From an uncultured Actinomycetes bacterium (GTDB taxonomy: Bacteria > Actinomycetota > UBA4738 > HRBIN12): 64,000 bases of DNA. The notes under the pieces were generated by a model, which worked only from the letters and a program-made list of their open reading frames with translations, was not told the DNA's origin and made no database searches. Made by a program: the position numbers and the translations under genes. The DNA is taken from assembly GCA_963723855.1 (NCBI GenBank), contig CAVRSI010000015.1, positions 195,553 through 259,552 on the forward strand, in the 5' to 3' direction. Positions 1 to 64,000 of the stretch are shown piece after piece (positions within the stretch are counted from its first letter, which is position 1; each line of letters opens with the position of its first letter).

Positions 1-1359
1 GCGTACAGGATCTCGCTGAACCCGTGGGGTCCCGCGTTCAGGCGCGCATCCAGGCCTGCGGGGATCACGACCGCCACGGCGGTGAGGGCGAGCACCACCA
101 GGAACGGCACCAAGATGGCGATCGCCGACAACTTGACCTCGCGGGCGCCGATCTTCTTGCCGAGGTACTCGGGGGTCCGCCCGACCATCAGCCCGCCGAT
201 GAACACCGCGATGATGACGTAGAACAGCATGCCGTACAGGCCGCTCCCGACACCGCCCCAGATGACCTCGCCCACCGCGATGTTGAACATCGGGGCGACC
301 ATGCCGTCGGCCTTGTAGGAGTCGTGCATCGAGTTCACGCTCCCGTTCGACGCATCCGTGGTGGCGACCGCCCAGAGCGACGATTGGTCGGTCCCGTACC
401 GGAGCTCCTTACCCTCCATGTTCGGGGCCGCAGCGGAGATGCCCGCGACGCGCATCGCCTGAGAGGACGTGTGCTCGTAGGGCACCGTCAACCAGAGACC
501 GGCGATGAAGAGCACCATCATCGCGGCGAAGATGGCCCATCCTTGACGGACGTTCCCGACCATCTTGCCGAACATGTAGCAGAGCGCAGCGGGGATCAGC
601 AGGATGGAAAGCAGCTCGACGAAGTTGCCGAGCGGACCCGCTCCCTCGAACGGATGCGCCGAGTTCACGTTGAAGAAACCGCCACCGTTCGTGCCGAGCT
701 GTTTGATCGCGACCTGGGACGCGACCGGTCCGCGGGCGATCGTCTGGTCGAACCCCTGGATACCATGCGCGACGGCCGAGCCAGAGAACGTCTGCACGAC
801 ACCCTGCGTGATCAGCACGACGGCGACGATCACCGCGAGCGGCAGCAGGATGTAGACCACGCCGCGAACGGTGTCGCGCCAGAAGTTCCCGAGGTCGTTC
901 GTGCGAGAACGGACGAACCCACGGATCAACGCGACGAGCACCGCCATGCCGACCGCCGCGGACACGAAGTTCTGGAACGTGAGCCCCAGCATCTGCGTGA
1001 GGTAGGTCATGGTGGTCTCGCCGCCGTAGGCCTGCCAGTTCGTGTTGGTCGCGAAACTGGTGGCGGTGTTGAAGGCCACGTACTGGTTCACCGCGCCGAG
1101 GCCCACCGGGTTGAGAGGGAGGTGCCCCTGCACGCGCATCAGGACGTAGAGCAGCACCGTGCCGATCGCGCTGAACCAGAGCGTGCAGGCCGCGTACCGC
1201 CGCCAGGTCTGCTCGACCATCGGGATCGACGCCGATCAAGCGGTAGATGACGCCTTCGACACGACCGACCCGTTCCGAGGTGTACACGCGGTACATGTAT
1301 GCACCGACCGGCGGCGTCAGGGCCGTCAGGATGACCAGATAGATCAGGATCGTCGTCAC
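1..1359 (-). CDS. kdpA: K+-transporting ATPase subunit A (KdpA); C-terminus runs off the left edge; one frame break near 1212-1227
   Basis: ORF 409..1359 starts as KdpA (MTTILIYLVILTALTPPVGAYMYRVY...IYRLIGVDP) and then turns Arg-rich. The adjacent minus frame is open to position 1, so it is absent from the track. My translation of it continues EQTWRRYAACTLWFSAIGTVLLYVLMRVQGHLPLNP...FATNTNWQAYGGETT...GTNGGGFFNVNSAHPFE...GRTPEYLGKKI, all KdpA hallmarks. Confidence 0.85.
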
Positions 1360-1360
1360 G

Positions 1361-1450
1361 TCAGAACCACTCCGGCCGGATCAACGCGATCGTGAGGTAG
1401 ACGAGCAAGGCAACCGAGATGATCAGCTCGAGGACGTCGGCGAGACTCAT
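1361..1450 (-). CDS. kdpF: K+-transporting ATPase subunit F (KdpF), 29 aa
   Basis: MSLADVLELIISVALLVYLTIALIRPEWF is a single TM helix with the KdpF-type AL..PE.F tail. It ends 1 nt upstream of the kdpA start and is hidden in the tail of track ORF 1361..1987. Confidence 0.75.
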   Translation of the reverse strand: MSLADVLELIISVALLVYLTIALIRPEWF

Positions 1451-1533
1451 ACGCGATCCAGCCATGCGACGAGCACCGCGGCGAAGAGGTAGAACGCGAC
1501 CACCAGGATCACCATCAGCAGATCGATGCCCAT
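1447..1533 (-). CDS. Candidate 28-aa hydrophobic peptide translationally coupled (ATGA) to kdpF
   Basis: Own translation: MGIDLLMVILVVAFYLFAAVLVAWLDRV*. The stop TGA at 1447-1449 overlaps the kdpF ATG at 1448-1450. An in-frame alternative ATG at 1557 would give 36 aa. The SD is weak, and the ORF is too short for the track. Confidence 0.3.
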   Translation of the reverse strand: MGIDLLMVILVVAFYLFAAVLVAWLDRV

Positions 1534-1651
1534 ATCCGCAGCATAGGAACGACTCATGAGGAACCCATAAGGGCGGAACGGCTCGACCTATGGGAGTCGT
1601 GAGAGCTCTCCGCCAAAGCCGGAGCGCGACATCCGGAAGCGTATCCTCGAC

Positions 1652-3196
1652 TTGATGGACGAGCGCGCGACGCTCCGGGAGCCAACCGATCTCCGCGGTC
1701 ACGGGATCCCGATACTCGCGCGACTCGCGAGGACGAGCCCCAACCTTCGGATCGCCGGCTATGTCATCGCCGTCGCCGGCACGGCACTCGTCACGATCGC
1801 GTTCCTCCCGATCCGGGACGAGGTCCTCCCGTTGAGCAAAGGGTTCGCGTTCCTTGCGGTCGTGGTCGCCGCCGCGGCGACCGGGAGCCTCGGCCCCGGC
1901 ATCGCGGCATCGATCCTCGGCTTCCTCTGCTTCAACTACTTCTTCCTCCCGCCGTACGGCCGATGGACGATCGCACGGCCAGAGCACGTAGTGGTGCTGT
2001 TCGCGTTCCTGGCACTCTCGGTCATCATCTCGGAGCTCTTGGCCCGTGCCGCCGAACGCGCCCGATCCGCGGAAGCTCGAGAGGCGGAGCTCCGCACCAT
2101 CCAGGAGCTCAGCCGTGAGCTGACCACCCGCGTGCCCGGCGAGGACACGATCGAAGTGGCGCTGCTGACCGTGAAGAACGCGTTCGGTTATGGAGCCGCG
2201 GCCCTCTTCGTCGAAGAAACCGAAGACGTGCGCGGTCTGGTCCAGCAGGTGACGGTCGGAGGACCGCCGGGATCGGTATCGGCGACGTGGGACCCCCGAT
2301 CGGCGGAGCAGCCGCCCGAGCGACTCCCGCTGTCCGTGGGAGGACGGATGCTCGGGCTCGTCGTCCTGAAGGGCGACCGGCCGCCGCTCACGCCCGCGGA
2401 GAGCCGCGTCCTCCGCGCGTTCTGCGATCAGCTTGCTCTGGTGCTCGAGCGCGACCGGCTCCTGCGCTCCGCGACGGAGGCCGAGGTCTACCGGCAGACC
2501 GAGAGCGTTCGCCGTTCGCTGCTCGCCGCGGTGTCACACGACCTCCGCAGCCCGCTCGCCGCGATCAAGGCGTCCGTGACGGATCTGCTCGACGACGTTC
2601 CCGGCACCACGGCGATCGATCGGCGCGAGGCGCTCGAGGCGATCGACGCCGAGACCGACCGGTTGAATGCCCTGATCGCCAACCTCCTGGACATGTCGAG
2701 GATCCAGGCGGGCTCACTCCGGGCGCGGCCCCAGACGGTGGATCTGACCGAGACGATCTCTGAATCGGTCGACCGACTCCGGCGCCAGCACGAGCACATC
2801 GCCGTCAACGTTCGGATCGCGCCCGAGGCGGCGTTGGTGCGAGCCGACCCCGTGTTCCTGGATCGGATCATGAGCAACCTCCTGGAGAACGCGGCCACGG
2901 CCGTCGACGATCACGAACACGCCACGATCGAGGTGGACGTCCGTCGTTCGAACAGCCTGGTGGCCGTGCGGGTGATCGATCACGGACCCGGCGTGTCGCC
3001 CGCCGCGCGCGAACAGCTCTTCTATCCTTTCTACCGGATGGACGACCGGAACCCGCGACTGGGGTCGGGACTGGGGCTCGCGATCTGCAAGGGGTTCGTC
3101 ACGTTGCTCGACGGGGACATCTGGATCGAGGACACGCCCGGCGGGGGCGCCACGTTCTCGTTCACGCTTCCATCCGCGGATGGGGGTGCGGACTGA
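1652..3196 (+). CDS. kdpD: KdpD-like sensor histidine kinase, short form (TM block + GAF-like + HisKA + HATPase_c) without the N-terminal KdpD/Usp module
   Basis: 514-aa ORF. It has an N-terminal multi-TM block (IAGYVIAVAGTALVTIAFLP...FLCFNYFFLPPYGRW), an H-box SLLAAVSHDLRSPLAAIK, an N-box NLLENAATA, and G-boxes DHGPGV...GSGLGLAICKG. It lies divergent to kdpFA and directly upstream of kdpE. Confidence 0.85.
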   Translation: MMDERATLREPTDLRGHGIPILARLARTSPNLRIAGYVIAVAGTALVTIAFLPIRDEVLPLSKGFAFLAVVVAAAATGSLGPGIAASILGFLCFNYFFLPPYGRWTIARPEHVVVLFAFLALSVIISELLARAAERARSAEAREAELRTIQELSRELTTRVPGEDTIEVALLTVKNAFGYGAAALFVEETEDVRGLVQQVTVGGPPGSVSATWDPRSAEQPPERLPLSVGGRMLGLVVLKGDRPPLTPAESRVLRAFCDQLALVLERDRLLRSATEAEVYRQTESVRRSLLAAVSHDLRSPLAAIKASVTDLLDDVPGTTAIDRREALEAIDAETDRLNALIANLLDMSRIQAGSLRARPQTVDLTETISESVDRLRRQHEHIAVNVRIAPEAALVRADPVFLDRIMSNLLENAATAVDDHEHATIEVDVRRSNSLVAVRVIDHGPGVSPAAREQLFYPFYRMDDRNPRLGSGLGLAICKGFVTLLDGDIWIEDTPGGGATFSFTLPSADGGAD

Positions 3197-3900
3197 GGAA
3201 GGAACGCATCCTCGTCGTCGACGACGAGGCCCAGATCCGCAAGGCGCTGAACCGTGCCCTCGTGGCCAGGGGATACGAGGTCGAGACCGCCGTGGACGGC
3301 GAGGAGGCACTGCTCGTCGCCGAACGCTTCGCGCCGGACCTGGTCGTCCTCGACCTGAACCTCCCCGGCATCGACGGGTTCGAGGTCTGCCGGCGACTCC
3401 GGACGTGGTCGGCGACGCCCGTCATCGTGCTCTCGGTGCGGGAGGACGAGGGCGACAAGGTCGAGGCGCTCGACCTCGGGGCGGACGACTACCAGACGAA
3501 GCCGTTCGGCATCGACGAGCTGCTCGCGCGGATCCGCGCCTTGCTGCGTCGCAGCGAAGACCGGAGCGGGCAGGTCGCATCCCGATTCCACTCCGACGGC
3601 CTCGAGATCGACCTGGCGTCCCACCGGGTCGTGCGCGACGGCGAGGGTGTTCGTCTCACGAAGACGGAGTGGGCGCTGCTCGAGGCGTTCGCGACCCATC
3701 CGGGCAAGCTCCTGACCCACGGATGGCTCCTCACGCACGTGTGGGGCGAGGGGTACGCGGACGACGTGGACGTGCTCCGGGTCTTCGTGAGCCAGCTGCG
3801 GAAGAAGATCGAGCGCGAACACACGCGCCCGGCGATCATCGTGACCGAGCCGGGCGTGGGATATCGCTGGGTGCTGCGAGCCTCGCCCGCGGAAGGCTGA
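3186..3900 (+). CDS. kdpE: OmpR-family response regulator KdpE; start region disturbed (probable 1-nt insertion near 3198-3204)
   Basis: Track ORF 3262..3900 has the receiver plus winged-helix domains (DLVVLDLNLPGIDG...KPFGIDELLARIRALLRR...VGYRW). The conserved receiver N-terminus RILVVDDE (3205-3228) is in frame upstream, but no ATG/GTG/TTG precedes it. GTG 3186 or ATG 3180 lie one frame off and would read M(GV)RTEEG-RILVVDDE if one base is removed. Confidence 0.8.
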
Positions 3901-8968: not shown

Positions 8969-10491
8969 CTACTGCCCGAGGTCAGTGGCCGTCCGCCCTT
9001 CGGTGTCCCGGGCGGTATCGAAGATGCGCCAGTAGGCGTCCTCGCCGAAGCTGGTTGGCAATGGTTCACCTTCGATGAGTCGGAACGTGCGCCGACCGTC
9101 GGGCTGCCGTTCGGCGCGAAGGAAGTAGGCAGTGTCCAGCTGCTGGATGTAGAAGCCGTGCGCGAGGTCGAACAGGTGCGTGACGAAGAAGACCTTGACG
9201 CCGGCATCTATCGATGCGCGGACGACTTGCCGGGCGATCTCGGAGCCCTCTCGCTCGTTCGTTGCCGAGAACGACTCGTTGCACAGCAAGAGGGAGTTCG
9301 GCGTGATCATGTCGGCGAGGTCGCTCATCCTCCCGAGCTCTTCGTCCAGCTTGCCGCTCTGCATCGTGACGTCTTCTCCTCGTTTGAAGTGCGTGAAGAC
9401 ACCGGTACAGACGTTGGCGCTGAAGGACTCCGCACCGACGAACATCCCGCTCTGCATCATCAGTTGCGCCGATCCGACGCTGCGCAGGAACGTCGACTTG
9501 CCGCCCTGGTTGGCGCCGGTGATCATGACGAGCAGCTTGCTCGCCGCTGTGACGTCATTGCCGACGACATCGTTCGCCACGCTCAGCGCCAGACAAACGT
9601 CGTACATCCGTCGAGCGGTGAGCGACGGGCGATCCTCAACGATGGGCATCGGGAAGGACGTCGGCTCTCCCTTCGCCGTCAGGCGTTCGTGCACATTCAC
9701 GCAGCCGATGTAGAAGCCGGTTTCCGCCCGCAACAGATCGAAGAAGCTGCGGATGTAATCGGCGGACTGAGCGAGCACGTTGGCAACCTGGTTGATCCTT
9801 TCGCTCGCAGGTCGCCCAGCGCCCTCGCCCCGCTCTCGTCGCGATCCGCGATCTGGAAGCTGAGGCCGGACCTGCCCCTGCGAGTGATCCGCTGCCTCCA
9901 GCTCAGCGTGGGGAGCGTCCGCAGCACGTAGTGGACGCCCTTGTTGCCCCTCCCGAGCTCGGCACTCATCAAGACGCCGCGCTCGAACCGCAACTCCTCG
10001 AGACGATCCTCGATGGTTCGGAAGTACGCGTCGTCCAGCTCCTCCGCGAGCATCGCGAAGAAACGCACGAAGCCATCGGACCGGAACCCTCCGGCGTGAT
10101 CGTCCGCGAGCCTGCGAAGCTGCCTGAGCGAACCCACGAACACCTCCATGGACTGGAGCGATCGCGTGAGGACGGCTTGCGGGGACATGAACGCGCCCCA
10201 GATCTTCTTCTCTTCCATGATCGCGCCGGCGGCGACCTGATAGATCTGTCTGACGACGGACGGTCGCTCCAGGCAGTCGGTCAGCACGTGCTGCCGGTAG
10301 ATGATCGCCTCCGGGCTCGTCAGGCTCGTCAGAACGGCCTTCCTCGCCACGTCGAACAGGAACGGGTCACCGGCCGCCATCGCGTTGAAGAGGATGTTCA
10401 GCTCGAGGTCTTGGGTGAGCGATCCTTCGTTCGACGGGAGTTCGCGCTGGAGGTCGAAGTCATCGTCCTCGTACATCAGGAAAGCCTTCAT
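8969..10491 (-). CDS. MutS-related ABC-type ATPase B (MutS domains III/V only); one frame break near 9796-9800
   Basis: The N-terminal half is ORF 9697..10491 (MKAFLMYEDDDFDLQRELPSNEGSLTQDLELNILFNAMAAGDPFLF...). The C-terminal half is ORF 8969..9778 (Walker A ITGANQGGKSTFLRSVG, LLLCNESFSATNEREG, Walker B/signature region). The two join as ...LRAKG-INQVANVLAQSADYIRSFF. There is no mismatch-binding domain I and no Smr/nuclease domain. Confidence 0.8.
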
Positions 10492-12020
10492 CGCACGTAT
10501 CCGCCTCCGCAGCGTCTCGTACGTAGGCCGTACTTCTCGGCGATGGCAGCGGCATAGGCAAGTCCGTCTGCGGGCTTCCTGGTGATCTTAACGTTCGCGT
10601 CGCGGGGTCATCGGGCACGACCGCGCTCACCATGCTGACCGTGACCTCGCTGAGGGAGGACAGCTCGTCCATGAAGGTCACGCACACGCACAACGAGTGC
10701 AACGCGATCAACCGATCCGTCACTTCCGTGCCGAGGAACACGGCGTCACGAAGCGAGGTCGAGTTGAAGCTCTCGTTCATGATGACGACGCTGTCGCTGG
10801 TCGCCAGGCGGAGGATTCGTGGAAGCTACCAGTTCATCCTCGAGCTTTCCGCGGAGGGTCGCGAGGTTCTCTTCCCGTTCGAAATGCGCGAAGACGTGAT
10901 CGGGCAGGGAGAGGTGCGCTGCCTTCGCAGGAACGAGACAACCGAGGTTGGCGAGATGATGCAGCTGGCCGAACATCCGTGCGAACGTCGTCTTCCCGCC
11001 TTGGTTCGGACCGGTAACGACGATGACGCGTTCCGGCTCCGTGAGATCGAACGAGTTGCACACGACCTCCGAACCCTGCGGGACGAGCTTGTTGGCGAGC
11101 GCGAGATCGAACGCATCGTGTGCGAACACGTGCTTCGCGCGAACGGACACGTGCGGGTAGCAGAACGGCAATCCGGCCGATCGGAACCGCTTGGCGTGCT
11201 CGAGATATGCCAGGTAGAACTGCACCTCCCGATCGAAGGTGCCGATGATCTGATCGAGGTAGTCACGGTGACGCACGCGATACTCGTCCAGCGCTCGCGA
11301 GACGTCGGGATACAGCTGTGCCACCAACTCGAACACGCGAGCTTCAACGGGATCCATGTCCAGCGAAGCAGTGAGTTTGACCCGGTGATCCCCCACGGCG
11401 CCGTGCTTGAACTTCGCGAACGTCTCCACGACCTCTGCGCTGAAGTCAGGCTCTCCCTCGTACCTGCTGACCGTGACCCGGTTCCCAGCGATGTGAACGC
11501 AGTACTTCACCGAAGCCAAGGCGTCCTTCAGCTCACGCGTTGCCGATATGAGTGACGTGAACGTCACGGACGCGGTGTAGTCCAGGATGTAGTCGCGGAA
11601 CGCCCGCAGGCCACGTGATGTCAATCCGAGAGATGCGAACCCTTCAGCCAGCGATCGAACCGCGTCGCAGTAGACCTCCACCGCCTCAACGAACCAACGC
11701 TTCTTCTGCGATGTGTAGTAGAGCTTCTCCACCTGAGCGAGATGCGCGCGCATCTCCTGCATGCGTCGCGAGAAGGCCTGGATGGCTTCCATGACCGCGC
11801 CATCCTCGAGGTCACGGAATACCTCATGCCGGTAGTACACGGCTTCGACGTCGCGCAACGGCGTGTAGAAGAAGGGCTTCAGTTGGTACTCGTCGCGACC
11901 GGCCGTTATCGACTCCACCACCTGATCGAGATTCAGGTCGCGGAAGAACCCGGGCTCTTCGAGCTCGTCGATCACGACGCTGCTCGGAGGCTGGTCGAAG
12001 AGGACGCTGTGGAACCGCAC
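10488..12020 (-). CDS. MutS-related ABC-type ATPase A (MutS domains III/V only); at least two frame breaks (10586-10594, 10818-10832); start revised to GTG 12020 (or 12032)
   Basis: ORF 10746..12164 contains (V)RFHSVLFDQPP...PGFFRDLNLDQVVESI and Walker A VTGPNQGGKTTFARMFG. It continues in ORF 10460..10780 (VIMNESFNSTSLRDA...VCVTFMDEL) and then in a third frame (KITRKPADGLAYAAAIAEKYGL...). The stop TGA 10488-10490 overlaps the ATG of ATPase B. The first 44-48 codons of the track ORF are occupied by riboswitch C and its leader. Confidence 0.75.
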
Positions 12021-12153
12021 GTCCCGACGCACCGGAGAGCCGTTCGGGTTCCGGAGCCTGCCGAGCTCCTGGGTCCCTCCGCCGGTGAAGGATCCTCGCT
12101 CGCTCGTGATACGCCTCCTTCCGCTGACGTCCGAAGCGCCCCGAGGGGCAGCC

Positions 12154-12202
12154 GTAGAAGCCATCAGCGTCGGAAGACGCGGTTCAGGCGAGCTTCATCG
12201 CC
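12154..12202 (-). promoter_or_regulatory. Fluoride riboswitch (crcB motif), copy C, aptamer; leader extends to about 12021
   Basis: Minus-strand RNA: GGCGAUGAAGCUCGCCUGAACCGCGUCUUCCGACGCUGAUGGCUUCUAC. Elements are P1 GGCG/CGCC, P3 GCGUC/GACGC, and loop GAAGC paired with 3' GCUUC. That pseudoknot carries a compensated double change relative to GGAGC/GCUCC in copies A and B. A TAACAT -10-like box lies at 12209-12214, 6 nt upstream. An SD-like GGAAGGAGG near 12114-12122 has no canonical start after it. The first in-frame GUGs are at 12032 and 12020. Confidence 0.75.
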
Positions 12203-12247
12203 ACCCCGATGTTAGCCCAGGAGGCGACGGACGGATGGCCTCGACCG

Positions 12248-12874
12248 CTATCCGTCTGACGTCGATCCCGCGAGCAGGCCGATGATGCGTCGCGCCGCGA
12301 GCGAGCGTTGTTCCGGGTCGTTGGCCGAGACTCGGGCGCGCGCGCTGAGCGCGAGGAGGGAGCGACGCTGCGTCGCGATGAGGAACCGCAGAGTGGACCG
12401 ACCGGGGCGAGTCCGACCGCCATGCTGAGATGCGGCCGGCAGATGCCGGTCGACACCTGATAGGCGGCGAGCACGTCGGGCTCGGCGAGCGCGTCGAAGA
12501 GCATCCCGAGCACCGACCGCCCTCGACGTTCTACCGCCGCGCATACGGGACACGCAGGTGGCCCCTCGGCCACACCCGCTCCGAAGTCCTCCGAGGCGGC
12601 CTGAGCAGATCCGCGAAAGGAGCCGCGCGCCCGCCGCCCCCAGATCCCCTCCTCGTCGGTCGAACACGCTCGCCCAGTGGGGCGCACAGAGTCCGCGGGA
12701 GTCGACGGTCTTGTCAATCGTCTCCTCTTCCCGGATGTTCGTGGTCGCGAGCCACGACAGGACCGCCCGTTCGGTCTCCCCCGCCAGCCGGCAGACGGGA
12801 CATCCGTCGCTACGAAGTGCGAGACCGAGCTCGGCCTCGAGGAGAATCTCGCGGAGAGGTTTCCGCTTCGTCAC
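12248..12874 (-). CDS. Hypothetical protein with two CPVC motifs (putative zinc-binding); two frame breaks (12398-12408, 12599-12614)
   Basis: Reconstructed from ORFs 12248..13243 and 12184..12717: VTKRKPLREILLEAELGLALRSDGCPVCRLAGETERAVLSWLATTNIREEETIDKTVDSRGLCAPHW...ARLLSRI / AQAASEDFGAGVAEGPPACPVCAAVERRGRSVLGMLFDALAEPDVLAAYQVSTGICRPHLSMAVGLAPV / RSTLRFLIATQRRSLLALSARARVSANDPEQRSLAARRIIGLLAGSTSDG. Its GTG start overlaps the phosphatase stop (GTGA). Confidence 0.55.
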   Translation of the reverse strand: MTKRKPLREILLEAELGLALRSDGCPVCRLAGETERAVLSWLATTNIREEETIDKTVDSRGLCAPHWASVFDRRGGDLGAAGARLLSRICSGRLGGLRSGCGRGATCVSRMRGGRTSRAVGARDALRRARRARRARRLSGVDRHLPAASQHGGRTRPGRSTLRFLIATQRRSLLALSARARVSANDPEQRSLAARRIIGLLAGSTSDG

Positions 12875-13504
12875 ATGCGCAGGGAGTCTTGTGCTCGACC
12901 TGCCTGTCGGAACAGGTCTTCGAGGACGGTCGGCACCTGCAGCCCTTCGTCGGTCGCCCGCAGCTCGATCACGGAGCCCGGCGACACGTCCGGGTCCCAA
13001 AACGCCGTTCCTTCGAGCCCCTTCAGACGCACGAGCACCAGCCGGATGAGGAGCTCGTGCGTGACCACGGCCACCGCTCGTTCGGGGTGCCGACCGCCTA
13101 TCGACTCCAGGGCCCTGAATGCACGTCGCTCGGCGGCCGCCATGCTCTCTCCGGAGGGGAAGGTCGCCGCCGCCGGGAACCGGAAGTAGAAGTCGAACGC
13201 TCTCGGCTCCGACTCCCTGATCGAGCGGCGTGCGAGCCACCACGAGCCCACGTCGACATCGGTCAGATCACTTCGATCGGCGTGGAACCACACCGACGGA
13301 ACGCCCGATGACGTCGGCGGTCTCCCGGGCGCGACGCCGGGGACTGGTGTAGATCGCGGAGACGTCCTCGAGAGCCAGACGCTCCGCCGCGCGCCGCGCA
13401 TCGTCCACGCCTTGCGCGGTCAGCGGGTCGTCCGTCTGTCCTTGCAGCCGACCTTCACTACTGAGAGCGGTCCGACCGGCTCGCACCACGAACAACGATG
13501 TCAT
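12871..13504 (-). CDS. Histidine-phosphatase (phosphoglycerate-mutase-like) fold protein with RAG in place of the catalytic RHG; one frame break near 13289-13306
   Basis: N-terminus from ORF 13268..13633: MTSLFVVRAGRTALSSEGRLQGQTDDPLTAQGVDDARRAAERLA...IYTSPRRRARETADVIG. C-terminus from ORF 12871..13401: VWFHADRSDLTDVDVGSWW...FRFPAAATFPSGESM...VAVVTHELLIRLVL. The codons read CGA GCC GGT, that is R-A-G. Confidence 0.7.
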
Positions 13505-13701
13505 CGGGAGCTCCCCCCATGTATGGCTTCCGCCGACGGCACATCCGGTGCGGTACGGATCGACATCGCCACGTGATCCCAGTCGATGCGGAGCAGCTCG
13601 ACCGGTCTGACGCGCGGGACGAACCGATTCCAATCCACGTCGACATCTTCGATCCGTCGCTCGCGCAGCGCAGGCGTCAGGTGCGGATAGGCGGAGGTCA
13701 T
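13501..13701 (-). CDS. Possible separate 66-aa ORF between the dynamin-like and phosphatase genes
   Basis: MTSAYPHLTPALRERRIEDVDVDWNRFVPRVRPVELLRIDWDHVAMSIRTAPDVPSAEAIHGGSSR. GGAGG lies 4 nt upstream of the ATG at 13699-13701. As sequenced it is in frame with the dynamin ORF. Removing one C from the C5 run at about 13712-13716 would end the dynamin gene with an ATGA overlap onto this ATG. Confidence 0.35.
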   Translation of the reverse strand: MTSAYPHLTPALRERRIEDVDVDWNRFVPRVRPVELLRIDWDHVAMSIRTAPDVPSAEAIHGGSSR

Positions 13702-15483
13702 GGCGCCTCCATCACCACCATGACGGGGGCCGGTCGCGGCCGTTTGGAACGCCTCACGGAGCTGGTCGAGCCGGCGTCGATCGACCCGCGCATCTTCCTT
13801 GGCTCGCAGGGCGTCTTCGGCCGACCGCTGCCGATCGCGTTCGGAGCGTTCGAATCCCCGCACCGAGGCTCTCGATGGTCGCTTCCAGGCTCCGGTCCAA
13901 TGCCGATCCAAGGTCACGGCGACTCCGGTCGAGCCGCTGCACGAAGTCCCAGTGAAGGCGTCCCATGTGCTTGTCGACGAGCGAAGGAGTCGCTCCCTCA
14001 AGGTCGCGCAGGAACAGGCGCCGCGCCGTCTCTCGCGGCAGGAACCGGCGAACGTCCGGCAGGATCGACTCGATGATCGATGGAGGTTCGAAGAAGCTGA
14101 AACTGAACGGGGTCCGGAAGACAGCTCGACGAGATGGCCCTCGGAAACGAGCTGGATCCCGAGGATCTCGCCGCACAGCCGGACGGTCTCCCGCTCGGTA
14201 CCGTCCGCCTCCTCGACGAAACGGGCCGTTGCGTCCCGGAACGCGGCGGAGAGCGTCTGCTCCTCGAGTCCGCGCCAGTGGCCGATATCGGTGCGGAGCG
14301 CCTCCCTCAAGAACACGAACCCCTCGTCGTCCCGCGCGATGCGCCGGACGTCCTCAAGCGAGGCAACGTGTTCCTCGACGGCAGACGTCAGGCGGGTCTC
14401 CTCCTCGGAACGAAGCTGTTCCAGATCCTGCTCGAGACGGGACACGAGCGCCTCGGCCTCCTGATCGAGAAGAGCGTGCATGTCGCGTTGTCTCGATCGA
14501 GCCTGGGCGAATACCTCCTGCATGCGCCGACGAGCCTCTTCCAGCTCCTGGACGGGGAGATCGAGCGCCCGCTCCTGCACCTCCAGCGCGTTGCGCTCGT
14601 CGTCCACCAGCCGCAGCGCACGCCCGGCCACGGAGGCCAGGATGGCCCGCCCTTTCTCGTCCAGCAGGAACGTCCGGAAATCACGTTCGAACGCGGGGAG
14701 CCCCGAAGCCTCCAACTCGCGGTCGTCTCCGGCGAGCTTCGCCCGGAGCGCCCGGCGGGCGCTCAAGGGATAGACAACGACGTCCTGCCCGACGGCTTCT
14801 TCGATAACCCGATGTGTGAACGCGATGGACTCGTCACGGTCGAGCCCCGACAGGTAGTCGATCTTGTTCAGGACGAAGAAGAGACGCGCCGTCTCCCCGC
14901 GAACTCCTCGAGGAACGCACGCTCCGTCTCGGAGAATTGGCGGGTCCGCAGAGGTGAGGAAGACGGCGGCGTCGGATTCGGAGAGGAAGGCGCGCGCCGC
15001 CTCGGTGTTGCGCTGGTAAACGCTGCCGACGCCGGGCGTATCGACTAGGAACACCCCGTCACGCAGATCTTCCGACGGGTACGACACCACGGCCCTCGCG
15101 ACCCCCAGCGCATTGTCCGGGTTGCCTCGCTCGGTCACGTACGTAGCGAGATCCGTCACGTCGACGTCCTCTTCGCGGCCGTCGAGATAGCCGATCCGAG
15201 CTCGGATCTCCCTCCCCCACGTCACCGCCGTGACGATCGAGGTGAGTGGCACGACGGCGGAAGGAAGCACGTCTGCGCCGAGGAGTGCATCCACGAACGT
15301 GGTCTTGCCCCGTTTGAACTCGCCGAAGACCACGACGTTGAATCGGTTCTCGACGAGCTTCTTGTCGAGGGCCCGTGCAGCGTCTGTGACGGCCCGGCTC
15401 TCGCGTCGGTCGGCGAACTCGGCGAGATCGTCGAGCGCCACGAGAAGCCTGTCCCGCTCCTCCGCGTAGGTTCGTTGACCCAT
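13699..15483 (-). CDS. Bacterial dynamin-like GTPase (BDLP family); four frame breaks inferred (13855-13862, 14125-14140, and a compensating pair at 14893-14900 / 14932-14938); 3' end uncertain
   Basis: ORF 13501..15483 has G1 VVVFGEFKRGKTTFVDALLG, G3 FLVDTPGVGS and G4 FFVLNKIDYL, followed by long coiled-coil-like stalk sequence. The middle of the C-terminal part is in ORF 13754..14176 (FRTPFSFSFFEPPSIIESILPDVRRFLPRETARRLFLRDLEGATPSLVDKHMGRLHWDFVQRLDRS...). It is the first gene after riboswitch B. Confidence 0.8.
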
Positions 15484-15560
15484 GGAAAAGCTCCTACCTC
15501 TGCATCCAGGTAGGAGCTATCAGCTCGCCGGGGCGAGCGGTTAGGCGAGCTCCATCGCCT
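15484..15560 (-). promoter_or_regulatory. Fluoride riboswitch (crcB motif), copy B: aptamer 15509-15560 plus an SD-sequestering, terminator-like helix at 15484-15520
   Basis: Minus-strand RNA: AGGCGAUGGAGCUCGCCUAACCGCUCGCCCCGGCGAGCUGAUAGCUCCUACC-UGGAUGCAG-AGGUAGGAGC-UUUUCC-AUG. Elements are P1 GGCG/CGCC, loop GAUGGAGCU, an AAC linker, P3 GCUCGC/GCGAGC, CUGAU, and a 3' AGCUCC complementary to the loop GGAGCU, then CCUAC. GCUCCUACCU pairs perfectly (10 bp) with AGGUAGGAGC and masks the SD AGGAG. A TATACT -10-like box lies at 15568-15573, 7 nt upstream. Confidence 0.85.
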
Positions 15561-18819: not shown

Positions 18820-20211
18820 TCAGCGCGGTCCATCAAGGCCGGCTCTCGCCTCACGGCGACCGATCTGGAGGAAGAAGAATCCGAAGACACCCGACAGGAG
18901 CGAAGCGGCGAACACACCGATCTTCGCTTCGGCGAGGCTCGCGGATCCCTCGCCGAACGCGAGCTCCGCGATGAAGAGCGCCACGGTGAACCCGATCCCC
19001 GCCACCTGGCCTACCCCCACCAGATCTCGGGAGGTGGCTCCGGTCGGGAGGGATCCGTGGCCCGCTCGCGTGGCGATCGACGCAGCCCCCCACACGCCGA
19101 CCAGCTTTCCGACGACCAACCCGAGGACGATCCCGAGGGTGACGCGGCTCCCCATCGCATCTCGCAGGACGCTCGCAGAGAGTCGGATCCCCGAGTTCGC
19201 CAGAGCGAACAGCGGCAAGACGACGAAGCTCGTCCATGGCAGGAGCGTGTGCTCGACCCGCGCGAGGGGGGACACAGCCTCCCTGGACAGCCACGAGAGT
19301 CGCATCCAGGAGTCGGCGTCCGCGTCGGGAGGACGGGGATCGTCGACGGTTTCGTCGGCCGTGCGCCGGGCCTCCTCGCTCACGTGTCGAGGGCGCTGGA
19401 ACGGCCTGACCGGGGTGAGGAGGCCGAGGATCACCCCGGCAAGGGTCGCTTGCACTCCCGATTCGAACATGGCGAACCACAAGCAGGTTCCGAGCACCAG
19501 ATACACAGCAGTTGCACGCACGTGGATCCGCTGGAGGCCGACGATGGCGAGGATGATGACCACGGCGGCCGCGATGGCCGGCCACTCGACGCCCTCCGAA
19601 TAGAACAGGGCGATGATGACGATCGCCCCGATGTCGTCGACGATCGCGAGGGTGAGCAGGAAGGGTCTGAGGTCCGTCGGTGCATGCCTCGCAGCAAGCG
19701 TCAGAACCGCTAGCGCGATCGCGATGTCCGTCGCCATGGGAACGCCCCAACCACGGACGTCTGTCGTGCCTCGATTCACTCCCACGTAGATGAGGGCCGG
19801 CACCACCATCCCGCCGATCGCTCCGACGATCGGGACGGACGCTGCGCGCCAATGCTGCAGCTCCCCGGTCACCAGCTCGCGTTTGATCTCCAGACCGACC
19901 ACGACGAAGAACAAGGCCATCAGACCGTCCGTCACCGCGTGGCGGAGGTCTTCCGATATGTGACGAGCGCCGACATGCAAGGAGATGGGGGTCGTCCACA
20001 GACGCTCATACGCATCCCGCCATGGTGAGTTCGCCCACACGATCGCGACGATCACCGCCAAGAGCAGGACGACCGCGCTGGCCGACGAGGTTTGCAGGTA
20101 TGCCTGGAGCGGGCGGAGCACGATCCGGGGGACGGGACGCTCGGACTGCGCCCACGGAAGGTTGATGCCGGATCCGGCACGCTCGTCGTCTTGCCTGCTG
20201 GTCGGTGCCAT
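18820..20211 (-). CDS. nhaA: Na+/H+ antiporter NhaA (copy 2, tandem paralogue); the ORF extends to 20247
   Basis: IVWANSPWRDAYERLW...TDGLMALFFVVVGLEIKRELVTGEL...AIVDDIGAIVIIALFY. It lies 26 nt upstream of copy 1 on the same strand. Confidence 0.85.
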   Translation of the reverse strand: MAPTSRQDDERAGSGINLPWAQSERPVPRIVLRPLQAYLQTSSASAVVLLLAVIVAIVWANSPWRDAYERLWTTPISLHVGARHISEDLRHAVTDGLMALFFVVVGLEIKRELVTGELQHWRAASVPIVGAIGGMVVPALIYVGVNRGTTDVRGWGVPMATDIAIALAVLTLAARHAPTDLRPFLLTLAIVDDIGAIVIIALFYSEGVEWPAIAAAVVIILAIVGLQRIHVRATAVYLVLGTCLWFAMFESGVQATLAGVILGLLTPVRPFQRPRHVSEEARRTADETVDDPRPPDADADSWMRLSWLSREAVSPLARVEHTLLPWTSFVVLPLFALANSGIRLSASVLRDAMGSRVTLGIVLGLVVGKLVGVWGAASIATRAGHGSLPTGATSRDLVGVGQVAGIGFTVALFIAELAFGEGSASLAEAKIGVFAASLLSGVFGFFFLQIGRREARAGLDGPR

Positions 20212-20338
20212 GCGTCGCACTCCTGCCGACCAGACTTCCCGGCGCACCTTCGGACCGGCACATGCTACCCCGGGTCACATCCCTTCACGAGTTCCTCACA
20301 CGGGTTCGGTTGTTGCTCAACGAGAGCGCCCGTACGCT

Positions 20339-21046
20339 TTGCGCGCCTTGTCAGACGGTCGACACGTATCGAAGTCTTCCCGCATCAAGCCCGCGTACCT
20401 CATCGCCGGTGGGGTGGTTGTGGTCGCGGCTGTGGTGCTCGGTTTCGTGTTGCTGGGTGGCGCGGACAGCCTCCCCATCATCGGAGGGAGCCCACCCCCG
20501 CCGACCCCGGAGTTCGCGTTCACCATGACGAAGGTCACGCCGGTCGCAACCAGTTCCGAGAGCACCCACAAGGACCTGGAGACCAAAGCGAAGGAAGCCG
20601 CTGGTCAGGTCACCGACCAGATGAACACGTTGTACATCGGCGCGTTCCTCGATCCCGGCAACTGGTTGGACGGTTCCTACGACAGCGTCTGGGAGCTGTT
20701 CGACCAAGGGGCGAGCGCCGAAGCGCAGACGCAGGTCGAGACGCTGACCGCCGGGACCGGGGCCGGCGACACGTTCGAGCAGATCCTGCCCGACGCCGGA
20801 AAGCTGAAGGCCAAGGTGCTGTTCGACCTCAAGGACCAGCCGTACTCCGTGGTGGCGATCACCAGGTTCGAGGCCGTCGGCAGCGGCAAGGACGGTCAGG
20901 ACGTGAAGATGACCAGCCGGGGCCAATACGTGTTCCAGCGGGTGGACGGGGACTGGCGGGTCGTGTCGTTCAAGGTGCTCCGCGACAACGAGGCGCAGGC
21001 GCCGAGCCTGTCGCCGAGCGCGACCCCCACGGAGAGCCCGTCGTGA
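20339..21046 (+). CDS. Hypothetical membrane-anchored protein; start uncertain (TTG 20339/20348)
   Basis: The tail of ORF 19985..21046 has a TM anchor, IKPAYLIAGGVVVVAAVVLGFVLLGG, and then a soluble domain ending QYVFQRVDGDWRVVSFKVL. The earlier part of the track ORF overlaps nhaA antisense. Confidence 0.5.
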   Translation: MRALSDGRHVSKSSRIKPAYLIAGGVVVVAAVVLGFVLLGGADSLPIIGGSPPPPTPEFAFTMTKVTPVATSSESTHKDLETKAKEAAGQVTDQMNTLYIGAFLDPGNWLDGSYDSVWELFDQGASAEAQTQVETLTAGTGAGDTFEQILPDAGKLKAKVLFDLKDQPYSVVAITRFEAVGSGKDGQDVKMTSRGQYVFQRVDGDWRVVSFKVLRDNEAQAPSLSPSATPTESPS

Positions 21047-33204: not shown

Positions 33205-33219
33205 GGCGCTCTCCTTCGA

Positions 33220-42358: not shown

Positions 42359-42538
42359 CTCGTCTCGCTCTTCTCGATCCGAGGCTAGGACGCGGCTGGG
42401 AACCGGTCCCGGGTCGTCCGTCCCGGGGCGACCGGGTCCAGCGGAGGGCCCTCAGGCCGCGCGCTTCCCGCGAGCGTTGCCGATCGCGATCGTGGCGAAC
42501 CCTCGCAGGCCGGGCACCCTCCTGAAGGTTGCCGGGAC

Positions 42539-52848: not shown

Positions 52849-55306
52849 TCAGATGCTCGGGGGTTTGAACCCCGACTTGGCCAGGACGAACGCGCGGGAC
52901 TCCGTGGCCATCCGCTTCACCGCCGGCCAGTCGACGTGCAGCAACTCGCCGTGTCGCTTCATGATCCGGCCGGCGATCACGACCGTGTCGACGTTCCCGG
53001 TGTCCATCCCCGCGACGACCGCGGTCGCCGGATCGTTGAGCGGCGTCACGTTCATCCGGTCGGTGCGCAACATGATCAGGTCGGCCTGTTTGCCCGGCGT
53101 CAGCGTCCCGATCTTGGAGTCGAGCCCGATCGCCTTGGCCCCCTCGATCGTGGCGCAGGCGAGGACCTCCTGCGCTCGGAGCGGCGGCTTGCCTTCGGCG
53201 GCCGCCGAAACGCGTTGCAGCGCCTGCACCGAACGCATCTGGTTGAACATGTCGCCCGGCACGTTGGTCTCGACGTCTACGCTCAGGCTCGGCGGCAGAC
53301 CCCGGTCCAGGAACTTCTGGATCGGGGGCATCCCGTGCCCCATCATCATCTCCACCGGAGACGCCAGGGACACGGTTCCGCCCGAGTCGACGATCATCTG
53401 GATCTCGGTGTCGTTCAGCGTGGTGCAGTGGATGTACGTCGTGTCGGGACCGAGCAGCCCGGCCTCGCCGAACTCCTGGAGCTTGGCGTCCTGCCCGTAG
53501 CTCCCCACCCCCACGTGGGTCGTGATCCGCGCGCCCGCCTCCCGGGCCAGCTTCCAGTGGTCGCGCGTCACCTCGAAGTCCGTGAACTCCGGGCCCGGCG
53601 CGGCGAGCGCCAGCGTCAGCATCTGATCGTTCGATGAGAAGTACTCGGTCGCCGCGCGGACGAACCAACTGGGCTGACGCTCCTCCCACTTGCCCCACCA
53701 CGGGAACCCGTAGGCGAACACCGCTCGCATGCCGGAATCCTGGAGGGCCTGGATCACCGCGTCGGTGTGGGCCGGCGAGCCCTGGATGTGCGACCAGTCC
53801 AGGAGCGTGGTGATGCCGGCGTCGATCGCGCCGAGCGCCGAGATCAGATCGCCGATGTACGCGTCCTCCGGCCGGAACGCCGGCGCCAGCTTGTGCAAGA
53901 CGAACGAGATGTAGCCGGACCGCCCCTCGAGCGGGACGTCGGTGCCGATGTTGCGCAGGAGCCCTTCCCAGATGTGGCGATGGGAATCGACGAAGCCCGG
54001 CATCACGATCATGCCCGACGCGTCGATCACCTCGGCTTCCCCGTTCTGCAGACCGGGCCCGACCGCGACGATCTCGCCGTGCCGGATCAGGACGTCGGCC
54101 GTCGCGAAGTCCCCCACGTTCGGATCGAGGCTCATCACCGTGCCTCCCCGGATCAGCATCCGTCCGGTCGGCACCACGCGGAAGTCGGGACCCGACGGGT
54201 AGAGCTCGGGGATGGCGGCCGAGGCGGGAGGTCGGCTCCCGATCACCCGGCGCCGGGCTCGCTTGTAGTTCCGCTTCACGAGCTCCTTGATGTCGCCCGC
54301 CTGGAACAACATGATCCCGAGGAGCACCAGGACGCCCGTGATCACCATGCCGTGCTCGGCGCTCAGGCCCAGGAAGGGCAGCGCGGCGATGATCAGCGCC
54401 AGGAGCACCGACGCGACCGTTCCCCCGATGAACGTCGCCCGTCCACCCGAGAGCGCGGCCCCACCGAGCACCGCAGCCGTGATGCTGCTCAGCGCGTAGC
54501 TGTCGCCGATCTGCGCGTTCCCGATCCCCGAGCGCGTCATCACCATGAACGAGGCGAGGGCCGCGAACAACGCCGACAGCACCAGGGCCCGCACCCGGAT
54601 CCACGCGGTGGGGACGCCGCTGCGTTTCGCCGACTGCTCGTCGAAGCCGGTCGAGCGCACGCGGAGGCCCGAACCGGTGGCGTGGAGCCAGTAGTCGAGC
54701 GCACCCGCCCCGATCACGATGGCGATGAACGCGATGGGGATCGGGCCGATCCGTTTCGCCAGCAACGAGGTGAAGTTGCGATCGATGATCCCGCCCGGCG
54801 TGTCCCGCAGGCTGAGCGAGATCCCGCTGAGGATGCTGAGCGTGGCCAGGGTCGCGATGATCGACGGGATCTTCAAACCGCGAACCAGACCGGCGTTGAC
54901 CAGTCCGAGGGCCAGGCCGGCGAGGAAGACGACGCCGACCCCGAGGACGACGTGCGCGGTGGTCGAGTCGGGGCCGATCAGGAAGGACGCGATCACGACG
55001 CCGAGGGTGACCATCGCCCCCACCGAGAGGTCGAGGTAGCCGACGAGGAGCGCGTGGGTCTGGCCGATCGCCACCAGCGCGAGCGGCGCGGCCAGAAGCA
55101 GGATGCTCGTGACGTTCGCGTGGTTGATGAATCCCGGGAAGCGCGAGCTGGTGTACACGGCGACCGCCACGATCAGCAGGAGCTGCAGCACCACCGGCAT
55201 CCACAGGCGGAACCGGACGATCTTCCGCCACTTGTTCTTGTCGCGGGCGTCGCGGATGACCTTGCGGATCGCCAGCCTGCTCGGAATCGAGACGGGTGGT
55301 GGTCAC
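52849..55306 (-). CDS. CUT2-type ABC permease fused in frame to amidohydrolase paralogue B (permease about 54290-55306, linker, amidohydrolase about 52849-54177); one N-terminal frame break near 55270-55285
   Basis: ORF 52849..55200 reads through from a 10-TM permease (…NVTSILLLAAPLALVAIGQTHALLVGYLDLSVGAM...RSTGFDEQSAKRSGV...) via ...LFQAGDIKELVKRNYKRARRRVIGSRPPASAAIPELYPSGPDFRVVPTGR into MLIRGGTVMSLDP...MPGFVDSHRHIWEG...THVGVG...YIHCTT...LSVDVET...GTLTPGKQADLIMLR, with no stop. The upstream in-frame codons LAIRKVIRDARDKNKWRKIVRFRLW lack a start. GTG 55306 (GTGA with a TGA at 55303) is one frame off. Confidence 0.65.
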
Positions 55307-56899
55307 GTCATGCCTTGCGAGGAAGGGCTCTTCGGCATGGCCATCCCGAACGGGAGAACGCCCGGCCTTGGAGAGACCGGGCCCGCGCACGATGGCCTCG
55401 ACGATACGGCGCTCGTCCAGCTCCTCGGCGGGGATCTCCTCGATGATCTGGCCGCGGGACATGACGAGCACCCGATCGCACAGACCGGCGAGCTCGAGCG
55501 GGTCGCTCGATTTGACCAGGAGCGCGGCCCCGGCGTCGGTCCGCGAGCGCAACGCGGCGTAGATGTCGAAGCGGGAACCGACGTCGACGCCCTGCGTCGG
55601 CTCGTACGCCAGGATGACGGTCGGCTCCCTGAGGAACGATCGTCCGACGGCCACCTTCTGCTGGTTCCCACCGGAGAGGAACTGCACCGGCTGCTCGAGC
55701 GACGGCGTGCGGATCTCGAGCCGGTCGACCAGTTCCTGGACGGTCCTGCGTTCGCGTCGCCGACGGAGCACACCCATCACGCTGAACCGTCGCAACGTCT
55801 GAACGGTCGAGTTGACGCGGACCCCGAGCACCGGCATCAGCGCCTCGCGCTTGCGGTCGCCGGGAAGCAACATGATCCCCGCCCGCACCGCCTCGTGGGT
55901 CGACGTCAGCATCAACTCCGTGCCGTCGCAGTCGACACGGCCCGCTCGCGGCGGTTGCCGGCCCGCCAGGCAATCGAACAGCTCGGGCTGGCCGTTGCCC
56001 TCGGCGCCGGCGATGCCGACGATCTCCCCACGCTGCATCGTGAAGCTGACGGGGCCGAAGGACTGACCCTGGAGACCGTCGACGAGCAGGACCTCGCGCT
56101 GCTCGCCGCCGTCCGGTGAGGCGGGAGGGAACGCCGCCTCGAAGGGGCGCCCGACGATCAACTCGACCAGGGCGGATTCGGTGGTATCGCGGGCATCGAA
56201 CGTGCCCTGGCTCCGGCCGTCCCGCAGGACCGTCACCCGATCGGCGACCTCCAGGACCTCCGGCAGCCGATGGCTCACGTAGACGACGCCTACGCCGCGT
56301 TCCCGGCAGGCGATCACGGTCCGGTGCAGCGCCTCCACCTCGGTAGGGCCGAGCGCCGTGGTGGGCTCGTCGAGGAGGAGCACCTTGGGGTCGGTGACGA
56401 GGGCCTTGGCCACCTCGAAGAGCTGGCGGTCGGCCAGGGTCAGGAACCCGGCCGGCGCGTCGGGGAAGAGCTCGAGGTCCAGGTCGAACTCGGCCAACAC
56501 GCGCCGCGCCCATCGCTTCCTCCGCCAGAAATGCGGACGGTGGTCCGATGGTGCGGCCAGGTAGAGGTTGTTCTTGACGGGCTGGGCCAGGATCAGCGAC
56601 GTGTCCTGGTAGGCCATGGCCAAGCCCAGCTTCCTGGCCTGCGCCGGAGAGTCCCGGCGCAGGGGTTGGCCCCCGATCTGGACCGTGCCCAGATCGGGGT
56701 CCACGAACCCGCTCGCGATCCCGAGGAGGGTCGACTTCCCCGAGCCGTTCTCGCCGACGAGCGCATGCACTTCGCCGGCACGGCAGTCGAAGCTGACGTC
56801 GGTCAGCGCCCGGACCGCCCCGAACTGGCGGGATACCCCGCGCAGTTCAAGGACCAGGTCCGAGGTCGCCGACCCTCCTTCGGGAACGCTGCTGCTCAT
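55303..56899 (-). CDS. ABC transporter ATP-binding protein, double-cassette (CUT2 type); 3' end uncertain (frame break near 55303-55330 inferred)
   Basis: The N-terminal 530 aa of the 1356-aa track ORF 52829..56899 carry Walker A GENGSGKST, LADRQLFEVAKAL, and LLLDEPTTAL. The second cassette has GAEGNGQPE, LSGGNQQKVAV, and ILAYEPTQGVD. Downstream of about 55300 that ORF is Arg-rich antisense of the permease. Confidence 0.8.
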
Positions 56900-62206: not shown

Positions 62207-62231
62207 GGCGCACCCCGCGAGCCGCGGGCCC

Positions 62232-62382
62232 GGCGTCAGGGTCAGCTGCCTGACGGGGAGTCTGTCCTGACGCGCAGCCCGGCGTCAGGCGCCTGACGAT
62301 TCCGACCTGCAGCTCTGGGGTCAGCCTCCTGACGCGGGGCGCCGATGGCAGCGCCCTCACCCGTCAGCTGGCCGGCCTGACG
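62232..62382. repeat. Array of short inverted repeats built on CGTCAGG / CCTGACG
   Basis: Perfect CCTGACG at 62249, 62266, 62292, 62328 and 62376. Perfect CGTCAGG at 62234 and 62283. Partial GTCAGC at 62241, 62320 and 62363. Includes the perfect 16-bp palindrome CGTCAGGCGCCTGACG at 62283-62298 and an 8-bp stem CCTGACGC/GCGTCAGG at 62266-62289. Confidence 0.8.
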
Positions 62383-62523
62383 CCCCACGGCGCCCGATCC
62401 GCATTCGTAGGTAGCCACCCCCGCAAGCACGAGTGATCCCTCGGATTTCCGCGAACAGCCCTCTCCCTAGCGTCGCCTCAACGGCCCTCACGTGGGCCAC
62501 CGAGGCGAAACGGGGTGGGTTCG

Positions 62524-64000
62524 ATGGGTATCCGGATCACGCGGAACACGTTCCGTACCAGGGGTTCTCGCTTCATCACGCTGGTGCTGCTGTTCACCGT
62601 CGCGGCCGGCGTTGTCGTGCTGGACACGACCCGCTCGGCTGGCTCGGCGATCCCGGTAACGGCGACACGCAGTCTCGCTCGTTCGACCGGTGTGTCGACC
62701 CTGTTCCGGGCGGACTCGGCCACGGGAACGTCGCCGTCCGCGACGTCGACGCAGGCATCTTGGGTAGTCGCCGAGAACCGGAAGCCCGGCACCTCGAAGT
62801 GGCGGATCCCCGACAGCGCTCCGACGAGCATCGAGGGATACGCCGACGCCGTGAGCGCACAGGTCGGTGACGAGGTGACCGTGTTCGTCTCGACACCGGC
62901 AGCTTCCTTCCACGTCGAGGCGTATCGGATCGGCTACTACCAGGGCCTCGGGGGCCGGTTCGTCTGGCGGTCGCGCCAGCTGCGCGGGCACGATCAACCG
63001 CCGCCCACCCGTACGTCCGGGACCAACATGATCGAGACGCATTGGTCACCGTCGCTCCGGATCCACATCACCGACGACTGGCCCCAGGGCGTCTACATGC
63101 TGAAGCTCGTCGCGAGCAACGGCGCACAGAGTTACGTTCCGCTCACCCTCCGCGACGACTCGAGCCACGCCGCCTTGGTGATCCAGAACTCCGTGACGAC
63201 GTGGCAGGCGTACAACGACTGGGGCGGGTACAGCCTGTACCACGGCTCCGGCGGTTCATTCAGCGCGCGATCCCGCGTGGTGTCGTTCGACCGTCCCTAC
63301 CTGGGCCGGAGGGGCTCGGCCGACTTCTTCTGGATCGAGTCGCCGCTGGTGTTCCTCGCCGAGCGGCTTGGACTCGACGTCACGTACTGGACCGACATCG
63401 ACCTGCACGAGCGGCCCGGACTCCTGATGAACCACCGTGCGCTCGTCTCGCTCGGTCACGACGAGTACTGGTCGAGCGTCGATGCGCCGCGGAGCGCTCG
63501 CCGCTCGCGTCCACGGGGTCAACCTCGCCTTCCTCGGCGCGAACGACGTCTACCGGCACATCCGCCTCGTCGCGTCGCCGCTCGGGAAGGATCGCCGAGA
63601 GATCGACTACAAGGTGGCCTCCGAGGATCCGCTGTACGGGGTCGACAACGAAGAGGTCACCTCCCAGTGGCGGGAGGCGCCCGTGCCGAGGCCGGAGAGC
63701 GTGCTGCTCGGCGGGCTCTACCAATGCAACCCTGTGCACGCCGACATGGTCGTCGCGGCCGCGTCGTCATGGGTCTTCGCCGGGACCGGCATGGCCAACG
63801 GCGACCGCCTGCCGGGCGCGATCGACCTGGAGTACGACCGGGTGGACGGAAGCCTCCCCACCCCGGCCTCCGTCCAGATCCTCGCTCACTCGCCCCTCAC
63901 GTGCCAGGGACACGGCGACCACGCGGACGTGACCTACTACACGACGCGCAGCGGTGGAGGCGTGATCGACATGGCGAGCCAGGGATGGATCCCGCTCCTG
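62524..64000 (+). CDS. Large exported/anchored protein, N,N-dimethylformamidase beta-subunit-like family; 3' end beyond the window; one frame break near 63470-63482
   Basis: This is my own translation; both frames are open to the window end and so absent from the track. MGIRITRNTFRTRGSRFITLVLLFTVAAGVVVL...KWRIPDSAPTSIEGYADAVSAQVGDEVTVFVS...YRIGYYQGLGG...GVYMLKLVASNGAQSYVPLTLRDD...VTTWQAYNDWGGYSLY...LGHDEYWS, then MRRGALAARVHGVNLAFLGANDVYRHIRL... The family name is from memory. Confidence 0.55.
   Translation, partial: MGIRITRNTFRTRGSRFITLVLLFTVAAGVVVLDTTRSAGSAIPVTATRSLARSTGVSTLFRADSATGTSPSATSTQASWVVAENRKPGTSKWRIPDSAPTSIEGYADAVSAQVGDEVTVFVSTPAASFHVEAYRIGYYQGLGGRFVWRSRQLRGHDQPPPTRTSGTNMIETHWSPSLRIHITDDWPQGVYMLKLVASNGAQSYVPLTLRDDSSHAALVIQNSVTTWQAYNDWGGYSLYHGSGGSFSARSRVVSFDRPYLGRRGSADFFWIESPLVFLAERLGLDVTYWTDIDLHERPGLLMNHRALVSLGHDEYWSSVDAPRSARRSRPRGQPRLPRRERRLPAHPPRRVAAREGSPRDRLQGGLRGSAVRGRQRRGHLPVAGGARAEAGERAARRALPMQPCARRHGRRGRVVMGLRRDRHGQRRPPAGRDRPGVRPGGRKPPHPGLRPDPRSLAPHVPGTRRPRGRDLLHDAQRWRRDRHGEPGMDPAP

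Follow-up and report, generated by a model that had tools for sequence, protein, structure and literature searches.

The window considered here is a stretch of 64,000 nucleotides (nt) taken from the draft metagenome-assembled genome (MAG) G000 (G000:C15:195553-259552). Its first 15.7 kb carry kdpA, the kdpD/kdpE junction, a small OB-fold protein, the H+-pyrophosphatase gene hppA, two MutS-domain-V proteins, a 'CPVC' protein, a phosphatase, a dynamin-like GTPase and the start of the enolase gene eno, whilst between 47.9 and 63.5 kb lie a bicupin, amidohydrolases A and C, E1 alpha, an M24 peptidase, an ATPase/permease pair and a 'DMFase-like' gene, the last of the window. In both of these blocks conserved proteins leave one reading frame and continue in its neighbour at discrete positions, 25 in total, with 14 in the left block and 11 in the right. 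These frame breaks, their uneven placement and their probable origin are the subject of what follows. The genome itself comprises 3.30 Mb in 55 contigs with 68% G+C, and is estimated to be 76% complete and 3.4% contaminated.

Reference genomes and detection of frame breaks

The closest relative of G000 is G005, which belongs to the same genus, is assembled into 6 contigs, shares 91-94% DNA identity and is syntenic with most of the window. As a sole reference, however, it had to be dropped, since the left part of its syntenic region is far worse than the window, having 168 single bases in excess and changing frame each 100-400 bp across the first 23 kb. G011, G007, G006, G008, G010, G012 and G001 were therefore added to polarise the insertions and deletions (indels). 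G011 is clean and syntenic across nearly the whole window (69 frame segments in 61.5 kb); of the other six, pieces were used for comparison.

The high G+C content of G000 makes long spurious open reading frames (ORFs) abundant, and reading frames were therefore tracked by codon usage. A codon log-likelihood model, trained on 240 long ORFs of G000, was applied in a Viterbi pass over six frames and a non-coding state, a frameshift being called, conservatively, only if the frame before the switch remained open for 50 nt or more past it. Further checks came from tblastn searches with the intact ORFs of relatives, from the alignment phase against G011, from multi-genome DNA alignments and from Pfam. 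Raw blastn gap lists, at ~80% identity, contain many spurious compensating gaps (those at 21150 and 31411, for example, are alignment artefacts), and phase tracking with multi-genome agreement was therefore used.

Frame breaks in the two flanks

An earlier reading of the window, made from its sequence and here called the original prediction, had listed about 25 single-base breaks. The frame tracker places same-strand switches at nearly all of those coordinates and none within the genes of the ~16-47.9 kb region; the conservative calls recover 15 of the 25 breaks, with 0 in the centre. At the break sites the intact ORFs of relatives match the window in at least two adjacent frames with contiguous query coordinates, and the alignment phase against G011 undergoes persistent changes at the same places. 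The proposal that conserved proteins carry on in a neighbouring frame is thereby borne out, with Pfam domains split such that their profile coordinates are contiguous; in E1 alpha, for instance, positions 10-163 and 178-298 of the E1_dh profile lie in adjacent frames. Comparison with the closest genomes, which had been put forward as a check, covers the 24 sites of the earlier list with 1-10 congeneric relatives (one relative each for sites 15687 and 63481). All of the indels are specific to the window, and the orthologous sites in the relatives are uninterrupted.

Twenty-four of the 25 proposed breaks thus stand. The exception, at 3198-3204 in kdpE, is not a break (see below), and an additional one in E1 alpha, the extra T at 51417, was missed, such that the total remains 25. 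Two breaks had been placed within 55270-55330, at the junction of the ATPase and permease genes. One of them, at 55281, is inside that range, and the second, at 55351, is just outside it; the former falls within the N-terminal end of the downstream gene and the latter within the C-terminal end of the upstream one, with the ATGA overlap between them. Overall, there is a base too many at 18 of the breaks and one too few at 5, the remaining 2 being complex changes; most are outside homopolymers, and in the right block all 11 are extra bases. The consequences for the proteins vary. The H_PPase domain of the hppA product is complete despite the break at 4421, and in the dynamin-like GTPase the 261 nt between the first two breaks (13854 and 14115) are out of frame within a long ORF that is still open. 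In agreement with the original prediction, no internal in-frame nonsense codons are seen in the coding pieces of the broken genes.

Table 1. Frame breaks and other features of the window. Positions are those of the window unless a genome and contig are given; protein names in quotation marks, and those of the OB-fold protein and the phosphatase, are taken from the original prediction.
Feature	Position	Strand	Observation
kdpA	1225	-	Extra A; Pfam KdpA positions 2-47 in one frame, 50-450 in the next
kdpD stop / kdpE start junction	3180-3262	+	Conserved junction, no frame break
Small OB-fold protein	4207	-	Extra G; not in 6 relatives (alignment) or 10 (multi-genome scan)
H+-pyrophosphatase hppA, C-terminal tail	4421	-	Extra G; not in 6 relatives (alignment) or 10 (multi-genome scan)
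MutS-domain-V protein B	9797	-	One base missing vs G005, G011
MutS-domain-V protein A, C-terminal end	10590	-	One base missing vs G005, G011
MutS-domain-V protein A	10817-10828	-	Net frame change; MutS_V positions 1-58 and 71-131 in adjacent frames
'CPVC' protein	12402	-	One base missing vs G005, G011
'CPVC' protein	12607	-	One extra base
Phosphatase	13221-13282	-	Several small indels, net frame change; G011 orthologue aligns in two frames
Dynamin-like GTPase	13854, 14115	-	Extra A at 13854, base missing at 14115
Dynamin-like GTPase	14904, 14936	-	Missing base, then extra A; compensating pair 32 nt apart
Enolase (eno), ~codon 13	15687	+	Extra G vs G005
Clean block	15688-47900		No window-specific frame break
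Bicupin	47901	-	Extra C; not in 5 relatives
Amidohydrolase A	48885, 49268	-	Extra C at each; Amidohydro_1 positions 1-88 and 116-343 in adjacent frames
E1 alpha (E1_dh)	50856, 51343, 51417	-	Extra C, G and T, respectively
M24 peptidase	51706	-	Extra T; Peptidase_M24 positions 3-137 and 150-208 in adjacent frames
ATPase/permease ATGA stop/start junction	55281, 55351	-	Extra T at 55281, extra C at 55351
Amidohydrolase C	59988	-	Extra T; not in 5 relatives
'DMFase-like', last gene of the window	63481	+	One extra base vs G007; G007 orthologue aligns in two frames
Frameshift patches of relatives	G010:C6:68500-85000; G005:C6:983001-1458413		Frame tracker calls

The clean centre and the regional contrast

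The original prediction had confined the breaks to 1-15.7 and 47.9-63.5 kb, and this limit holds, in that the central block is free of any break specific to the window and every G011 protein maps there to a single window frame. Phase changes relative to G011 do occur at 35937 and 40066. These are extra bases of G011 itself, since G001, G007 and G010 agree with the window, and the other 'gaps' which the multi-genome alignments give in the centre are intergenic or artefacts of alignment.

If 25 events were placed uniformly over 64 kb, a gap of 32.2 kb would have a probability of 6.6e-7. The centre is also the longest call-free stretch of the whole of G000 (C15:209674-243454, 33.8 kb), and in 2000 simulations of uniform placement no gap exceeds 30.8 kb (P<1/2000 for 33.8 kb); the sharp contrast between centre and flanks had been described as unusual, and on these figures it is. 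Across the genome, call-free stretches of at least 15 kb number 14 and cover 8.5% of the sequence. The calls are over-dispersed, their variance being 3.0 times the mean in bins of 10 kb and 2.4 times the mean in bins of 5 kb. At the latter size there is a correlation between adjacent bins (rho 0.19, p = 5e-6), which is gone at lag 2. Call density also differs strongly between contigs (chi2 p = 7e-30). The regional contrast is statistically real, yet it is the extreme of a property of the whole genome.

In this regard, the relatives are informative. G005 and G010 have denser patches of their own, the calls in G005 reaching 16 per 5 kb and a stretch of 16.5 kb in G010 containing 26, and both are also clean opposite the centre of the window. 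A cause intrinsic to the locus is rejected nonetheless, as the call densities of G000 and G005 show no correlation across the ~290 kb in which the two were compared as syntenic (Spearman 0.015, circular-shift p = 0.46), and the clean centre which they share is taken as chance. The patches of the two genomes do not coincide, and the cause is therefore to be sought in the assembly and not in the locus. Within G000, call density and distance to the contig end are not correlated, and at the borders of the blocks there is no jump in identity to G005, G010 or G011.

Frame breaks across the genome and selection on the broken genes

Conservative calls amount to 1393 over the 3.3 Mb of G000, a rate of 4.2 per 10 kb. 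This is ~10x higher than at the loci compared in G007, G011, G001, G008 and G012, which have ~0.3-0.5 calls per 10 kb (1 in 54 kb for G007, 3 in 61.5 kb for G011, 2 in 29 kb for G001, and 0 in 16.6 kb for the G008 and G012 loci). When set against a clean part of G005, 65 kb of C15 give 56 isolated extra bases vs 21 missing ones; 70% of these extra bases are not adjacent to an identical base.

Essential genes are affected, as had been claimed. In the window they are eno, broken at about codon 13, and hppA, in its C-terminal tail. Elsewhere in G000, rpoB (G000:C13:280674-283983) passes from one frame into another near 282271-282284, the adjacent rpoC (284205-287918) being intact, and gyrA (G000:C29:19159-22816) does the same near 22253-22266. 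Separately from its break, gyrA contains an in-frame insert of ~1.26 kb (19506 to 20764) between profile positions 116 and 115, and this insert looks like an intein.

The substitutions tell of the state of the genes apart from the indels. When counted at sites where two relatives agree, the private substitutions of the window fall mainly at third codon positions, and do so in flanks and centre alike. In the right flank there are 45-65 per kb at position 3 vs 5-13 per kb at positions 1-2, which is no worse than the centre; an excess at positions 1-2 is absent from the right flank and not clearly present in the left. This persistence of a mainly third-position pattern indicates that the flank genes are under purifying selection and are not decaying.

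Origin of the frame breaks

The broken frames are almost certainly an artefact of assembly, with no biological feature behind them and no new biology indicated. The artefact is favoured because the indels are private to this assembly, are genome-wide, reach into essential genes and come without any other sign of decay; the original prediction, in preferring indel-type error in sequencing, assembly or polishing to pseudogenisation, is sustained on the same grounds, that is the private and genome-wide nature of the indels and the third-position pattern which has been kept. More specifically, it is very probable that the breaks are single-base errors left in the consensus of a draft MAG, that the genes are intact in the organism, and that the density of the errors follows patches of the assembly.

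In terms of mechanism, the assembly would most likely have been made from noisy long reads with incomplete polishing, so that spurious additional bases would predominate over bases that were dropped. The error rate appears to vary in patches of ~5-30 kb and between contigs. The most economical account of this variation is that the indels which remain track how deeply a region was read or how well it was polished, both of which would fluctuate over approximately the length of a long read, and the central 32 kb would then be the longest well-resolved patch of the assembly. Uneven coverage, to which the original prediction had pointed, would be the most likely cause of the regional contrast. More broadly, the patchiness may derive from depth, from strain mixture or from polishing.

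Several points weigh against this account. The extra bases outside homopolymers differ from the classical homopolymer pattern of Nanopore data, and the platform is uncertain. Moreover, the quality of the flanks with respect to substitutions is no worse than that of the centre, so that a cause in low depth must affect indels only. G+C content was considered as the cause of the patches and set aside, the correlation being weak (rho 0.18); that weak positive correlation with call density may nevertheless be either a bias of detection or a real effect of sequence. Finally, the indels have been judged from assembled sequences.

It is possible, if on balance doubtful, that the breaks are artefacts of a contig pieced together from several data sources or populations, and that the regional contrast records this mosaic. 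In that case the centre would derive from a short-read contig, from a co-occurring strain at higher depth or from a region of low diversity (a swept region), and the flanks from long-read gap filling or a mixed-strain consensus. The sharpness of the transitions, the exceptional length of the clean block, the strong heterogeneity between contigs and the occurrence in the flanks of indel errors without an excess of substitution errors would all fit such an origin. A mosaic sits less easily with the lack of an identity jump at the block borders. Moreover, when the left flank, the one part so examined, was searched against G000 down to weak matches, the bin yielded no second copy of it at high identity, and an autocorrelation limited to lag 1 at 5 kb is also expected from the plain fluctuation of long-read depth. 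A bolder extension of the same idea, and an improbable one, is that the patchwork records real population structure, in which clean blocks, that at 15.7-47.9 kb among them, would be effectively clonal in the sampled population or shared near-identically between co-occurring strains through a recent gene-specific sweep or transfer, and error-rich blocks would be merged from diverged strains. If that were true, the density of frameshifts in MAGs of this kind could provide a reference-free map of local strain diversity.

Very improbable is the reading of the frameshifts as real mutations arising from regional or genome-wide decay, genome reduction or a mutator phenotype. The breaks are truly present in the deposited sequence, they are regionally clustered, and two MutS-like genes of the window are themselves among the broken genes, all of which such a reading would accommodate. 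It would also have to accommodate ~1400 or more breaks across the genome, with rpoB, gyrA and eno among the genes hit, in coding pieces where no in-frame nonsense codons are seen, where protein identity to relatives is high on either side of each break and where the third-position pattern of substitution is kept; the sister genomes, for their part, are broken at other places. Pseudogenisation and recoding are both rejected because too many core genes are broken for any organism to sustain, because there is no decay and because no break is common to the relatives. As to recoding, a programmed origin in ribosomal frameshifting, transcriptional slippage or quadruplet decoding can be dismissed almost outright, for although most of the breaks are +1-type extra bases after which the protein carries on seamlessly in the next frame, no site is conserved in any relative (the orthologues being uninterrupted there), the inserted bases differ from site to site, as do their contexts, with no slippery motif in common, and both +1 and -1 changes occur, with compensating pairs 32-261 nt apart.

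Other features of the window

The kdpD/kdpE junction, initially counted as a frame break, is aligned without any indel against G005 and G010, and with only a 3-nt indel against G008. The kdpD gene ends in TGA, and the homology of kdpE begins in another frame at a CTG inside a CTGA stop/start overlap. Homology to KdpE runs from 3193, there is no in-frame ATG, GTG or TTG before 3262, and the CTG within the CTGA overlap is conserved in G000, G005, G010 and G008. This arrangement suggests that kdpE may use a CTG start with translational coupling to kdpD.

On the minus strand, positions 9000-15500 hold a conserved gene cluster, syntenic in G005 and G011, which consists of the two MutS-domain-V-only proteins, the 'CPVC' protein, the phosphatase and the dynamin-like GTPase. 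In place of a segment of ~10 kb (29500-40000), G005 has ~5 kb of other sequence at its syntenic site; G011 contains the segment, at 86% identity. Further along, the C-terminal part of the gene for a 692-aa kinase (42535-43840) belongs with numerous paralogues, which share 68-70% DNA identity and occur in all genomes of the genus, and this points to a large gene family to which this part would belong.

Consequences for the use of these genomes

Outside a few clean blocks, the gene calls of G000, its completeness estimates and any reading of its genes as 'pseudogene' or 'split gene' are unreliable, and so, at a minimum, are those of two further few-contig genomes in the genus, G005 and G010. Findings on G000 which are based on broken or fused ORFs need, therefore, to be read in light of this error load. 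Nor are the reference genomes of the genus to be assumed free of error, given that even the clean G011 has the two isolated extra bases opposite 35937 and 40066.

Comparison with known systems

Many frameshifted genes are found likewise in Mycobacterium leprae and in recent endosymbionts. In such pseudogene-rich, reduced genomes nonsense codons and deletions occur as well and constraint is relaxed, while core genes, rpoB and gyrA among them, stay intact. G000 is unlike them on both counts, as its core genes are broken and constraint is retained.

The closer likeness is to long-read MAGs laden with frameshifts, as documented by Sereika et al. 2022 (PMC9262707) and treated in the proovframe preprint (10.1101/2021.08.23.457338). 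In common with these, genes that are otherwise conserved are cut short by single-base indels across a contiguous MAG, marker-based completeness is depressed (76% in G000), and there would be a dependence on depth and polishing; sufficient coverage is indeed described as necessary for consensus accuracy (10.1101/2021.08.23.457338). For Nanopore assemblies it is errors in homopolymer length which are emphasised (PMC9262707), and in this respect G000 differs, with errors that are mostly extra bases outside homopolymers. Raw PacBio continuous long reads, on the other hand, are biased towards insertions, with 8% insertions and 3% deletions (10.1101/2021.08.23.457338), and it is these that the insertion bias of G000 resembles.

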